64,000 nucleotides of DNA. It comes from Octopus sinensis (lineage: Eukaryota). Positions within the stretch are counted from its first letter, which is position 1. Every line of letters starts with the position of its first letter. The stretch spans positions 68,386,001-68,450,000 of the forward strand of contig NC_043003.1 of NCBI RefSeq assembly GCF_006345805.1, written 5' to 3'. Of this stretch, positions 36,371-57,735 are shown in pieces. A program made the translations under genes and the position numbers. The notes beneath the pieces were generated by a model that was given only the letters and a program-made list of their open reading frames with translations, was not told where the DNA came from and made no database searches.

Positions 36371-36904
36371 TCTAGCATACTGGATCCCCCTTATATGTAC
36401 TTGTGCATTTATATATATATATATATATATATATTTATCGCTCTTCCTATCCTTCTCACCCTATCTCTCTGTCTGTCCAACGGTCTGTCTGACTGCGAGT
36501 GTCGGCTTGCGTATTTATAAATCAATACGCCTGTTTATTTGTGTATCTATGTTTGTCTTTCTGTGTCTCATTCTTAATATCCACATCTTCTCCACCTCCA
36601 CGATTACGATCATCAGCATCCTCAGCATCAGCAGCAGCAGCAGCAGCAGCACAACCACCACCACCACCATTATCTTCACCAGCAGCAGCACCACCACCAC
36701 CACCATCATCATCATCATTATCATCATTTAGTGTCCATTTTGCATGATCTGGCGCTCAGGGCGTCATCGATCACCGATGTTAGCTCTGGCATGTTTTCTA
36801 CTGCTAAATTTTCTTCTTAATGCCAATTACATTATAGAGTGTACTCGATGCTCTTTTCATGCCACCGGCACCAGTGAAGTTGTTGTGTAAACATGCAAGA
36901 AAGA

Positions 36905-47819: not shown

Positions 47820-48033
47820 TAATATATATATATATAGAAAATAGTAAAAAGTGAAAAAACTACAGAAGGCTTGTTTTAAAAGGTTAAAAAATATATATTT
47901 GAGTCAATATGTCTGAAGAATATTATTAATTTTTTTCTTACAATGACATAGTTTAGAAGAAAGACCGGTTTCGCGTTTAGCTTTTCAAATTTCTAACGTC
48001 GTTATGTTTATGTTGAGAAGAGTTATCGTTATG

Positions 48034-48419
48034 TTTAAAGAGGGACAGAAATTCAAGATCAAATCTAATTTTACTTGTGCCTCTGAAAACATAATTTATG
48101 TCATAAAATGCTCGGGCTGCCACCAGACTACGTGGGATCCACGGGACTATCACTCAGATGTAGATGCACACTGCATCGACAACAGATTGCATTCCCAGAA
48201 TCCAGAATGATACCTTTTAGTGAGCACATTGAGAAATGCGCAAAGCAACTACTAACACAATTTTTAATCTTTCCATTTTACCAATGTGCTATCGGATCAT
48301 CAACACAAATTAGACTAAACAAGGAAACATTCTTCATTGAAAAGTACAAGCCCAGACTTAATCATTCCAACATACTTATACAGAGAAATTCACCCCAAAG
48401 GAAAGGTAAAAAATTTTAA
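48034..48419 (+). pseudogene. GIY-YIG endonuclease domain of a Penelope-like element (one frameshift near 48128)
   Basis: FKIKSNFTCASENIIYVIKCSGCHQ/YVGSTGLSLRCRCTLHRQQI...FSEHIEKC...RLNKETFFIEKYKPRLN. Confidence 0.9.
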
Positions 48420-48527
48420 GCGATTATCTCCCCTACACCGGAAGAAATCACTTATTACCTCCCCTTATCTAGAACTCTTTTCAACATAAACATAACGATA
48501 ACTCTGCTCAACATAAGCATAACGACG

Positions 48528-48567
48528 TAAGAAATTTGAAAAGCTACACGCGAAACCGGTCTTTCTT
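48528..48567 (+). ncRNA. Minimal hammerhead-like motif in the pseudo-LTR (mirror copy at 47957-47995 on -)
   Basis: aagaaa-u-UUGAAAA-gc(uacac)gc-GAAA-ccgg-UC-uuucuu: U3-A8 replaces C3-G8, stem III is the palindrome accggu, and there is one extra U before the core. Confidence 0.55.
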
Positions 48568-48723
48568 CTAAACTATGTCATTTTAAGAAAAAAATTTATA
48601 ATATTCTTCAGACATATTGACTCAAATATATATTTTTTAACCTTTTAAAACAAGCCTTCTGTAGTTTTTTCACTTTTTACTATTTTCTATATATTCAACC
48701 ACGTGCTTTCGCAAACCAACTTT

Positions 48724-48758
<35 letters not shown>

Positions 48759-48880
48759 CGATTTAGGAGTGACCCCAACAGGTCACTCGTCCACCAGAAA
48801 GAGCAGCCATAACTCACACCGCCAAGTATTATTAATTCAGAAATTAGGTGAAAATTTAAAAACATTTACCCTAATTCATC

Positions 48881-48980
48881 CTTTTAGACGTTGCAACGTT
48901 TCTGTGTCATTAATGATTAAATTAGCTTAATTAAATTAAATTAAGCCAATCTACCATAGGTTACACTTCATCAGTAAAAG
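48881..48980 (-). ncRNA. Type I hammerhead ribozyme (array unit 1)
   Basis: Reverse complement of the motif described at 50774-50873. Confidence 0.78.
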
Positions 48981-49353
48981 ACCTGGGAGAGACAAATATA
49001 CACGAGGCGTCTGTATTGATGCCTACGGGATATCTGACTTAAAATTTTCAAGACTGACGTATTCGCGCCAAACTTGTCAACAGTAAATATAAACTGCCGA
49101 TTTAATCTCAGAATTATTCAGAAAATTATCAATTAGTCATTTAGGGTAGCAAAAAATTCAATAGAAATTTATCGCAACCAGCGGCCTGGTGAAAAAGAGA
49201 AAATAGTCATCGACTAAATATATAAATATAACGATTTAGGAGTGACCCCAACAGGTCACTCGTCCACCAGAAAGAGCAGCCATAACTCACACCGCCAAGT
49301 ATTATTAATTCAGAAATTAGGTGAAAATTTAAAAACATTTACCCTAATTCATC

Positions 49354-49453
49354 CTTTTAGACGTTGCAACGTTTCTGTGTCATTAATGATTAAATTAGCT
49401 TAATTAAATTAAATTAAGCCAATCTACCATAGGTTACACTTCATCAGTAAAAG
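49354..49453 (-). ncRNA. Type I hammerhead ribozyme (array unit 2)
   Basis: Same motif as 50774-50873, on the minus strand. Confidence 0.78.
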
Positions 49454-49824
49454 ACCTGGGAGAGACAAATATACACGAGGCGTCTGTATTGATGCCTACG
49501 GATATCTGACTTAAAATTTTCAAGACTGACGTATTCGCGCCAACTTATCAACAGTAAATATAAACTGCCGATTTAATCTCAGAATTATTCAGAAAATTAT
49601 CAATTAGTCATTTAGGGTAGCAAAAAATTCAATAGAAATTTATCGCAACCAGCGGCCTGGTGAAAAAGAGAAAATAGTCATCGACTAAATATATAAATAT
49701 AACGATTTAGGAGTGACCCCAACAGGTCACTCGTCCACCAGAAAGAGCAGCCATAACTCACACCGCCAAGTATTATTAATTCAGAAATTAGGTGAAAATT
49801 TAAAAACATTTACCCTAATTCATC

Positions 49825-49924
49825 CTTTTAGACGTTGCAACGTTTCTGTGTCATTAATGATTAAATTAGCTTAATTAAATTAAATTAAGCCAATCTACCA
49901 TAGGTTACACTTCATCAGTAAAAG
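49825..49924 (-). ncRNA. Type I hammerhead ribozyme (array unit 3)
   Basis: Same motif as 50774-50873, on the minus strand. Confidence 0.78.
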
Positions 49925-50773
49925 ACCTGGGAGAGACAAATATACACGAGGCGTCTGTATTGATGCCTACGGGATATCTGACTTAAAATTTTCAAGACTG
50001 ACGTATTCGCGCCAAACTTATCAACAGTAAATATAAACTGCCGATTTAATCTCAGAATTATTCAGAAAATTATCAATTAGTCAATTTAGGGTAGCAAAAA
50101 ATTCAATAGAAATTTATCGCAACCAGCGGCCTGGTGAAAAAGAGAAAATAGTCATCGACTAAATATATAAATATAACGATTTAGGAGTGACCCCAACAGG
50201 TCACTCGTCCACCAGAAAGAGCAGCCATAACTCACACCGCCAAGTATTATTAATTCAGAAATTAGGTGAAAATTTAAAAACATTTACCCTAATTCATCTT
50301 TTAGACGTTGCAACGTTTCTGTGTCATTAATGATTAAATTAGCTTAATTAAATTAAATTAAGCCAATCTACCATAGGTTACACTTCATCAGTCTAAAAGA
50401 TGAATTAGGGTAAATGTTTTTAAATTTTCACCTAATTTCTGAATTAATAATACTTGGCGGTGTGAGTTATGGCTGCTCTTTCTGGTGGACGAGTGACCTG
50501 TTGGGGTCACTCCTAAATCGTTATATTTATATATTTAGTCGATGACTATTTTCTCTTTTTCACCAGGCCGCTGGTTGCGATAAATTTCTATTGAATTTTT
50601 TTGCTACCCTAAATTGACTAATTGATAATTTTCTGAATAATTCTGAGATTAAATCGGCAGTTTATATTTACTGCTGATAAGTTTGGCGCGAATACGTCAG
50701 TCTTGAAAATTTTAAGTCAGATATCCCGTAGGCATCAATACAGACGCCTCGTGTATATTTGTCTCTCCCAGGT

Positions 50774-50873
50774 CTTTTACTGATGAAGTGTAACCTATGG
50801 TAGATTGGCTTAATTTAATTTAATTAAGCTAATTTAATCATTAATGACACAGAAACGTTGCAACGTCTAAAAG
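50774..50873 (+). ncRNA. Type I hammerhead ribozyme with extended stem II
   Basis: Stem I cuuuua (50774-79) / uaaaag (50868-73); core CUGAUGA (50780-86); stem II a-gugu...acac-a; GAAA (50852-55); stem III palindrome acguugcaacgu; GUC cleavage triplet ending at 50867. Confidence 0.8.
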
Positions 50874-51248
50874 GATGAATTAGGGTAAATGTTTTTAAAT
50901 TTTCACCTAATTTCTGAATTAATAATACTTGGCGGTGTGAGTTATGGCTGCTCTTTCTGGTGGACGAGTGACCTGTTGGGGTCACTCCTAAATCGTTATA
51001 TTTATATATTTAGTCGATGACTATTTTCTCTTTTTCACCAGGCCGCTGGTTGCGATAAATTTCTATTGAATTTTTTTGCTACCCTAAATTGACTAATTGA
51101 TAATTTTCTGAATAATTCTGAGATTAAATCGGCAGTTTATATTTACTGTTGATAAGTTTGGCGCGAATACGTCAGTCTTGAAAATTTTAAGTCAGATATC
51201 CCGTAGGCATCAATACAGACGCCTCGTGTATATTTGTCTCTCCCAGGT

Positions 51249-51347
51249 CTTTTACTGATGAAGTGTAACCTATGGTAGATTGCTTAATTTAATTTAATTA
51301 AGCTAATTTAATCATTAATGACACAGAAACGTTGCAACGTCTAAAAG
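51249..51347 (+). ncRNA. Type I hammerhead ribozyme (array)
   Basis: CUGAUGA at 51255-61; GUC ends at 51341. Confidence 0.78.
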
Positions 51348-51721
51348 GATGAATTAGGGTAAATGTTTTTAAATTTTCACCTAATTTCTGAATTAATAAT
51401 ACTTGGCGGTGTGAGTTATGGCTGCTCTTTCTGGTGGACGAGTGACCTGTTGGGGTCACTCCTAAATCGTTATATTTATATATTTAGTCGATGACTATTT
51501 TCTCTTTTTCACCAGGCCGCTGGTTGCGATAAATTTCTATTGAATTTTTTTGCTACCCTAAATTGACTAATTGATAATTTTCTGAATAATTCTGAGATTA
51601 AATCGGCAGTTTATATTTACTGTTGATAAGTTTGGCGCGAATACGTCAGTCTTGAAAATTTTAAGTCAGATATCCCGTAGGCATCAATACAGACGCCTCG
51701 TGTATATTTGTCTCTCCAGGT

Positions 51722-51820
51722 CTTTTACTGATGAAGTGTAACCTATGGTAGATTGGCTTAATTTAATTTAATTAAGCTAATTTATCATTAATGACACAGA
51801 AACGTTGCAACGTCTAAAAG
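51722..51820 (+). ncRNA. Type I hammerhead ribozyme (array)
   Basis: CUGAUGA at 51728-34; GUC ends at 51814. Confidence 0.78.
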
Positions 51821-52195
51821 GATGAATTAGGGTAAATGTTTTTAAATTTTCACCTAATTTCTGAATTAATAATACTTGGCGGTGTGAGTTATGGCTGCTC
51901 TTTCTGGTGGACGAGTGACCTGTTGGGGTCACTCCTAAATCGTTATATTTATATATTTAGTCGATGACTATTTTCTCTTTTTCACCAGGCCGCTGGTTGC
52001 GATAAATTTCTATTGAATTTTTTTGCTACCCTAAATTGACTAATTGATAATTTTCTGAATAATTCTGAGATTAAATCGGCAGTTTATATTTACTGTTGAT
52101 AAGTTTGGCGCGAATACGTCAGTCTTGAAAATTTTAAGTCAGATATCCCGTAGGCATCAATACAGACGCCTCGTGTATATTTGTCTCTCCCAGGT

Positions 52196-52299
52196 CTTTT
52201 ACTGATGAAGTGTAACCTATGGTAGATTGGCTTAATTTAATTAATTTAATTAAGCTAATTTAATCATTAATGACACAGAAACGTTGCAACGTCTAAAAG
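52196..52299 (+). ncRNA. Type I hammerhead ribozyme (array)
   Basis: CUGAUGA at 52202-08; GUC ends at 52293. Confidence 0.78.
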
Positions 52300-52536
52300 G
52301 ATGAATTAGGGTAAATGTTTTTAAATTTTCACCTAATTTCTGAATTAATAATACTTGGCGGTGTGAGTTATGGCTGCTCTTTCTGGTGGACGAGTGACCT
52401 GTTGGGGTCACTCTAAATCGTTATATTTATATATTTAGTCGATGACTATTTTCTCTTTTTCACCAGGCCGCTGGTTGCGATAAATTTCTATTGAATTTTT
52501 TGCTACCCTAAATTGACTAATATATATATATAATAT

Positions 52537-52651
<115 letters not shown>

Positions 52652-52878
52652 TAGGCGAGCTGGCAGAAACGTTTATCACGCCGGGTGAAATGCTTAGCGG
52701 TATTTCGTCTGTCGTTACATTCTGAGTTCAAATTCCGCCGGGGTCGACTTTGCCTTTCATTCTCTCGGGGTCGATAAATAAAGTACCAGTTTCGCACTGG
52801 GTCGATATAATCGACTTAATCCCCTTGTCTGTCCTTGTTTGTCCCCTCTATGTTTAGCCCATTGTGGGCAATAAAGAA

Positions 52879-52880
<2 letters not shown>
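52652..52880 (+). mobile_element. SINE family B, intact copy in (TA)n
   Basis: aggcgagctggcagaaacg (A-box-like), gagttcaaattcc (B box), gcctttcattctctcggggtcgataaataaagtaccag, ending ggcaataaagaaat. Confidence 0.9.
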
Positions 52881-57130: not shown

Positions 57131-57735
57131 TTTAGGCACAAGGCCCGAAAATTTAGGTAAGAAGGCCAGCTAATTACATCGACCCCAGTACACAACTGGT
57201 ACTTAATTTATCGACCCCGAAAGGATAAAAGGTAGAGTGGACCTCAGCGGGATTTGAACTCAGAGCATAAAGACAGAGGAAATACCCCTAAGCATTGCGC
57301 CCGGCGTGCTAACGTTTTTTATTTCTTTATTGCCCACAAGTGGCTAGACGTAGAGGCGACAAACAAGGAGAGACAAAGGGATTTAGTCGATTAGATCGAC
57401 CCCAGTGCGTAACTGGTACTTATTTAATCGACCCCGAAAGGATGAAAGGCAATGTCGACCTCGGCGGAATTTGAACTCAGAACGCAGCGGCAGAAGAAAT
57501 ACCTCTTTCTGTACTACCCACAAGGGGCTAAAAACAGAGAGGACAAACAAGGATTGACAAACGGATTAGGTCGATTATATCGACCCCAGTGCGTAACTGG
57601 TACTTATTTAATCGACTCCGAAAAGATGAAAGGCAAAGTCGACCTCGGCGGAATTTAAACTCAGAACGTAACGGGAGACTAAATACCGCTAAATATTTCG
57701 CCCGACATGCTAATGATTCTGCCAGCCCGCCGCTT
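57131..57735 (-). mobile_element. SINE family B cluster (three units)
   Basis: Three copies of actggtacttatttaatcgaccccgaaaggatgaaaggc...gacctcggcggaatttgaactcag. Confidence 0.88.

Follow-up and report, generated by a model that had tools for sequence, protein, structure and literature searches.

The window, a stretch of 64,000 nucleotides from the Octopus sinensis contig NC_043003.1, contains at 48753-52521 a head-to-head array of a 474-nt unit that is bounded on each side by (TA)n. The array belongs to a new retrozyme family with a near-strict rule that each inverted insertion ends once at each of two fixed unit positions (sites A and B). That the inversion lies near the ribozyme cut site, where the original prediction placed it, is likely a coincidence inside this real element. 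The unit has a GC content of about 34% and contains no open reading frame (the longest open frame is 61 aa), including none for a reverse transcriptase (RT) with a GIY-YIG domain, and the repeat is not an autonomous Penelope-like element. In the following list and throughout, unit position 1 is the first base 3' of the predicted cut.

48726-48757, strandless: left (TA)n flank, which also flanks an adjoining Penelope-like fragment
48753-50392, sense on the minus strand: arm A, 3.5 units, with its 3' end at site A (unit position ~134) running into (TA)n
50307-50390, minus strand: 84-nt spacer inside perfect inverted arms, holding most of one hammerhead core
50391-50392, strandless: head-to-head junction with a GT microhomology of 2 nt; the predicted cut would be at 50393/50394
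50391-52521, plus strand: arm B, 4.5 units, starting at the GTC triplet, with its 3' end at site B (unit position ~229) running into (TA)n
52520-52653, strandless: right (TA)n flank

The architecture is as first described: an antisense arm joins a sense arm, both sense 3' ends point outward into (TA)n at different phases of the unit, and the head-to-head arms and (TA)n target give the insertion a Penelope-type geometry. At the joint, the left arm ends at unit position 386 and the right arm begins at 472, while the perfect inverted arms around the spacer span 50096-50306 and 50391-50601. To the right of the array, a SINE-like repeat is seen by eye at 52654-52880, and a 184-nt two-copy repeat at 57322-57687 looks related to it.

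The end rule emerges from a survey of 159 loci, 121 of which contain a resolved head-to-head pair. An end-blind set comprises 39 of 883 candidates scored, namely the window and 38 loci fetched by unit search. A first end-anchored set consists of 85 loci on the end-B pattern, taken from the first 100 of 181 matches, and a second of 35 loci on the end-A pattern, taken from the first 100 of 308 matches minus loci already covered. The outer (sense 3') ends lie at the two fixed positions, and 115 of the 121 inverted arrays, one of them a duplicate (L140/L141), carry one A and one B end, which gives them the head-to-head, 5'-truncated form with a tail at one end that characterizes Penelope inserts. 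A/A pairs are absent, L117 is the one B/B exception, and in five arrays one end is atypical or unseen (atypical ends are found in L055, L056, L150 and L168). The rule also holds in the end-blind set, where 26 of 28 inverted arrays are A+B and neither A/A nor B/B occurs. The target is AT-rich or microsatellite DNA, with TA-rich flanks at 207 of the 222 outer ends, 120 of the 159 loci having been found by patterns requiring A/T after the end. Site A is on the left in 63 arrays and on the right in 53, as a symmetric target would permit. Whole insertions are duplicated together with their flanks at L052, L096, L177 and L140/L141, as assembly duplicates or segmental duplications.

The two sites are not equivalent. 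Among the B-anchored loci, 77 of 85 are inverted, and the 35 A-anchored loci divide into 16 A+B arrays and 19 without a resolved partner. Since single-arm inserts end mostly at A (in the end-blind set 8 at A versus 1 at B, to which come a duplicated A locus and a B locus that also holds a copy of a sister family described below), A looks like the primary site. The A arm is the longer one in 45 of 111 loci. Both ends lie a few bases past a predicted hairpin followed by CTAAATYG, as in these internal units:

50966-51001, plus strand: site A motif with hairpin, CTAAATYG and end point (z -2.6; 4 of 200 shuffles as good)
51047-51097, plus strand: site B motif with a weaker hairpin, CTAAATYG and end point (z -1.4; 21 of 200 shuffles as good)

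The site-B hairpin alone is not significant, as 21 of 200 shuffles fold equally well. The stretch of about 95 nt from A to B is likely the "tail". LINE-1-style twin priming with a second site beside the breakpoint was considered and rejected, the outer ends being fixed instead. A few arms in both families (L055:5351, L095 near 650 and L239:2763) stop around unit position 102, some 30 nt before site A is reached, and the foot of the A hairpin is possibly a minor third start site.

Each unit of the array carries the core and the three stems of a type I hammerhead, in which stem I has 6 bp, stem II has 4 bp and a long AU hairpin, and stem III is a palindrome; the motif also contains CUGAUGA, GAAA and GUC.

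50774-50873, plus strand: type I hammerhead motif (stem I of 6 bp, CUGAUGA, stem II, GAAA, stem III), with the predicted cut after 50867
51255, 51728 and 52202, plus strand: further hammerhead cores
48968, 49441, 49912 and 50385, minus strand: further hammerhead cores

A search of the window with Rfam at gathering score gave no match, to the hammerhead or otherwise. The window family contains an extra A on each side of stem II, and in most of its units an A intervenes where the canonical G10.1-C11.1 pair would directly precede GAAA. According to the accessible text of PMC4209133, this pair is a conserved hammerhead feature, which the A before GAAA breaks, whereas the A on the 5' side has a precedent in Penelope hammerheads with an additional base between 9 and 10.1. 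Owing to the extra A before GAAA, self-cleavage in the window family is uncertain.

The fold is nevertheless real on the evidence of covariation with an older sister retrozyme family, while cleavage is only predicted. Sister copies were first seen in L051 (8744-9207) and then in 30 loci (L220-L249 among them), with units of 465-472 nt and 2688 first-look candidates. The sister sequence is identical to the window family at 324 of 474 bases (68%) and has a canonical core, in which GAAA immediately follows the G10.1-C11.1 pair. All three stems have changed letters yet are still paired, and stem III is again a palindrome. Within the window family, a double change in stem III occurs in 6 of 209 units. 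The original prediction of a genuine hammerhead fold is therefore upheld by the sister family, but not by the junction, which had been offered as its evidence. The end rule recurs as well, with A+B in 10 of 14 distinct inverted sister loci and one end unread in the other 4, and the site-B sequence is the best-kept stretch between the two families. The predicted unit circle is strongly self-paired (-122 versus -93 +/- 6 kcal/mol for 40 shuffles). Among the sequencing runs listed as carrying the repeat, none is recorded as RNA; two runs guessed to be RNA contain repeat contigs at a depth of 5-16, which are not counted as evidence.

The inner ends, at the joint, are scattered. According to the original prediction, the array inverts exactly at the cleavage site, the cDNA having either reached the ribozyme-made 5' end or snapped back via stem I, so that the inversion would mark the cut. 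This model is highly improbable. The sense arm of the window does start 1-3 nt from the predicted cut, as arms do at L080 and L133. Its first base, however, is the G of GTC, which lies 3 nt upstream of the first post-cut base rather than exactly at the cut, and as the GT is common to the left arm the least offset is 1 nt. Across the 111 resolved inverted arrays, the breakpoints show no link to the cut: only 3 of the 222 inner ends (the window, L080 and L133) lie within 3 nt of it, compared to 3.3 expected under a uniform distribution or 3.7 under a hazard model, none of the 222 lies exactly at the first post-cut base, and 172 of the 222 arms extend beyond a cut site. Directly downstream of the cut there is a mild excess (18 inner ends at positions -3 to +20 versus 12.2 expected), which would favor the model but is not significant (p 0.07). 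The distribution of inner ends over the unit is a little uneven (chi-square p 0.013), and the cut does not stand out as a single peak. Had the switch gone through stem I, the expected sequence would be catcag-taaaag-atg; the DNA has catcag-tc-taaaag-atg, which is out of stem-I register, and the exact window junction was found only once in the genome searched (G000). The breakpoints of other copies, which the original prediction had itself named as its touchstone, are thus free of the cut, and the proximity of flip point and cut in the window is likely due to chance. For the window locus alone, the cDNA may have halted at the cut end and received one untemplated base, although it would first have passed four other cut sites.

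A 1-nt deletion had been regarded as a private mark copied from one arm to the other. It is indeed mirrored: the units next to the junction carry one G at 50297 and 50399, placed as mirror images around the 84-nt spacer, and the other seven sites of the locus carry GG. It is not private, the single G being the family majority (199 of 222 full units). L031 has the same GG haplotype as the window, with a single G 99 nt from its junction and no mirror copy. In GG-type loci, the single G is found at 3 of the 5 sites lying no more than 100 nt from a junction and at no array site further off, and 1-nt losses at GG/CC runs amount to 67 of 6816. Short-read polishing is a candidate source of the junction-near single G, but SNPs near junctions do not revert to the family allele (1/188 versus 10/1824). 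Since arms L1 and R1 of the window array differ at a T run near unit position 204, any copying between the arms was short.

The two arms of a locus share a common haplotype. In 77 loci, 13 of 1546 polymorphic-site comparisons differ between the arms of one locus (65 loci are identical), compared to 37054 of 114940 (32%) between loci. In addition, 36 private SNPs from 17 loci are fixed in all passes of both arms, and 40 long loci represent 26 haplotypes. Arm lengths are correlated (rho 0.43 in 70 B-anchored loci), the phases of the two inner ends differ by no more than 5 nt in 15 of 111 loci (3.1 by permutation), and "same unit, same stop" fits 18 of 111 (4.1 expected). These 111-locus statistics omit six non-A+B loci (L112 and L123 among them, both overrunning the fetched stretch), the duplicate L141, and L108, L136 and L170 with complex or unclear joints; L168 was passed over by the junction finder. 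Microhomology of at least 2 nt is present at 52 of 91 flush joints versus 18% by chance, a somewhat inflated figure because the finder seeks the largest overlap and admits common alleles. Arms stop at a rate of about 2 per 1000 nt, which is flat up to 1.4 kb and across unit boundaries and falls to about 1 per 1000 nt at greater lengths.

The array is probably a non-LTR retrozyme inserted in one event, in which a Penelope-like RT/endonuclease primes both nicked strands on one RNA, at A and at B, and the truncated cDNAs are joined by microhomology away from the cut. A Penelope-like protein would nick both strands of the (TA)n target, whereupon one nicked strand would prime at site A and the other at site B of the same RNA. 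The two hairpin-CTAAATYG signals would be read by a two-subunit complex, the template would have no fixed end, and both cDNAs would halt at random before being joined by microhomology. Failed priming at B would leave a single arm ending at A. The accessible text of an in vitro study of anole Penelope (PMC11167929) describes a purified protein that nicks and extends both target strands, synthesis from two internal RNA sites, one on either side of the tail, a predicted dimer and no requirement for ribozyme cleavage. The same study saw no start-site difference between the strands, which it read separately, and this counts against the preferred model, as do the drop in stopping rate beyond 1.4 kb, an excess of mirror-register variants (see below), the B/B array L117, the atypical ends, and the sister copy in L051, where a short inverted B-type stub faces a B end and by eye looks B/B.

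If both strands prime in this manner, the template is somewhat more plausibly a monomer circle copied round and round than the alternative, an uncut linear multimer. The circle is favored because new SNPs are fixed throughout entire arrays of several units and because the rate of stopping is flat; a pure monomer circle is disfavored because L031, L061, L112 and L117 carry recurring non-fixed variants. In these long arrays the variants recur at a spacing of about 4 units in L117 (735-6219) and alternate in L031, which argues that some templates were multimeric, or for array changes after insertion such as block duplications.

No autonomous partner with the same end motifs was found in a search that covered a minority of the Penelope families of the genome, which likewise counts against the preferred model. 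A compact hammerhead with the same stem III gave no matches in this search, and the B motif with other upstream sequence gave 7 matches at 4 places, all retrozyme copies. The Penelope family adjoining the array has no detectable similarity to the 474-nt unit, the score being below that of shuffles. It is represented in the window by a separate insertion:

47830-48725, plus strand: Penelope-like insertion with an inverted arm without tail (47830-48037) and a sense arm that contains a frameshifted GIY-YIG fragment and ends in a tail of ~35 nt

This fragment belongs to a young and abundant RT-bearing Penelope-like family with a C-terminal GIY-YIG domain and an upstream Cys motif (11,865 first-look candidates, the best 150 at >=91% amino-acid identity), which is presumably Neptune-like. 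A tail end is paired with a no-tail end in 2 of 30 loci, the two with both ends readable, one of which is the window. The 3' region of the fragment contains GAAA-CCGG-TC, with no CUGANGA core found upstream of it. Elsewhere in the window, CAG and CAC/CAT runs at 36623-36717 would encode poly-Gln and poly-His and are possibly part of a host-gene exon.

The shared haplotypes and same-phase inner ends are also accounted for by a single priming followed by fold-back, in which the cDNA snaps back on itself and is copied to give a DNA hairpin, whose copied part is then released at the other fixed site through resolution by the Penelope endonuclease; self-priming and endonuclease-mediated resolution are proposed for Penelopes in the accessible parts of PMC3846280 and PMC8557442. 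Unit-level variants found in both arms provide the most direct comparison. The register expected if the A arm was copied back contains 12 of them versus ~5.5 expected, and one of these 12 is the mirrored single G of the window, which is mirrored about an 84-nt loop. The other fold-back register contains 2 versus 6.5 expected, and 19 lie elsewhere versus 21.6. The mirror-register excess is a hint that some events involved DNA fold-back. The joints of L092, L147, L165, L176 and L182 fall in palindromes. As a general explanation, fold-back is unlikely. A looks primary, yet in 46 of 111 loci, the window included, the B arm outruns its A arm by a length greater than that of the tail, so it is no copy of A; furthermore, the loops at most joints far exceed a hairpin turn, and the T-run difference between L1 and R1 limits copying in the window to a short stretch at most. 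The two mechanisms may also act together, with a fold-back extension annealing to a second cDNA that was primed by the target. The joints of L165, L176 and L140 lie in the hammerhead stem III palindrome, 9-17 nt upstream of the cut, and a short-read contig (X1) holds a similar joint from 50317 to 50394.

It is extremely improbable that the inversion is an assembly artefact caused by a fold-back long read or a mis-join. The arrays do contain many 1-nt indels (857 indel calls in 88,877 aligned bases, partly haplotype differences), and among the pieces listed no short-read contig crosses the exact window junction. The flanks, however, are unrelated and no mirror images, the two ends stop at different sites, and the same geometry is found at 121 loci with different joints. 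Short-read contigs from two deep runs, X3 (guessed to be DNA) and X1 (kind unstated), hold seven other antisense-to-sense joints of the repeat at a depth of 12-97.

Priming on both strands from one RNA, as preferred above, can be extended to Penelope elements in general. Penelope insertion may be a programmed twin priming, in which an enzyme dimer binds one RNA at two repeated hairpin signals and makes one cDNA per cut strand, one from each signal, the tail and the inverted pseudo-LTR are products of the same process, and a ribozyme-made circle yields multimer arrays in one step; the odds of this broader proposal fall slightly short of even. The second-end attachment of Penelopes, their inverted repeats and their one-sided tails are described as open in the accessible parts of PMC11167929 and PMC8557442. 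The pairing rule makes the second step of Penelope integration testable in the existing in vitro system. The entry of retrozyme arrays into genomes has so far rested on indirect evidence, and a young family offers more than 100 natural reaction products with a near-strict rule and SNP tags. The insertion sites provide evidence that retrozyme multimers are made during integration.

Metazoan non-LTR retrozymes have been described as dependants of Penelope elements (Cervera and de la Pena 2020, PMC7229834; Li et al. 2026, bioRxiv 10.64898/2026.07.22.740005). The octopus family resembles them as a GC-poor, non-coding tandem repeat whose units each carry one type I hammerhead, and also in its dispersed arrays, in the presence of Penelope-like elements in the same genome and in a self-paired predicted circle. 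In the accessible text of these two papers, mobilization by Penelope is inferred from co-occurrence and pLTR homology, and there is no description of arrays in inverted form, of 3' ends at fixed positions or of (TA)n as a target (the word "inverted" is absent from that of PMC7229834). Repeated copying of a monomer circle is proposed for retrozymes in the former, while the accessible text of the preprint discusses local amplification as a source of tandem copies; here, in contrast, arrays appear to arrive as multimers. A literature search among openly readable main texts found no report of inverted retrozyme arrays or of strict start-site pairing.

For Penelopes, the accessible parts of PMC8557442 and PMC3846280 describe inverted copies, often with a tail at one end only. 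One-sided tails and inverted copies are thus already known, while strict pairing and retrozyme insertions of this kind appear to be new relative to these texts. Unlike Penelope-like elements, the 474-nt repeat is without an ORF, occurs as tandem monomers and has a tail of about 95 nt versus 30-40 nt, and here the one-of-each end rule has been counted and joined by evidence for a shared template. The arrays are also analogous to the products of LINE-1 twin or dual priming as presented in the accessible text of PMC2837659, in that both target strands prime and the inverted arms are joined internally, often by microhomology. In LINE-1, according to that text, the second site arises through chance internal annealing, and inverted copies are a variant product. 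In the retrozyme, by contrast, both sites are fixed, poly(A) is absent, the two arms cover overlapping sequence, and most B-ended inserts are inverted.
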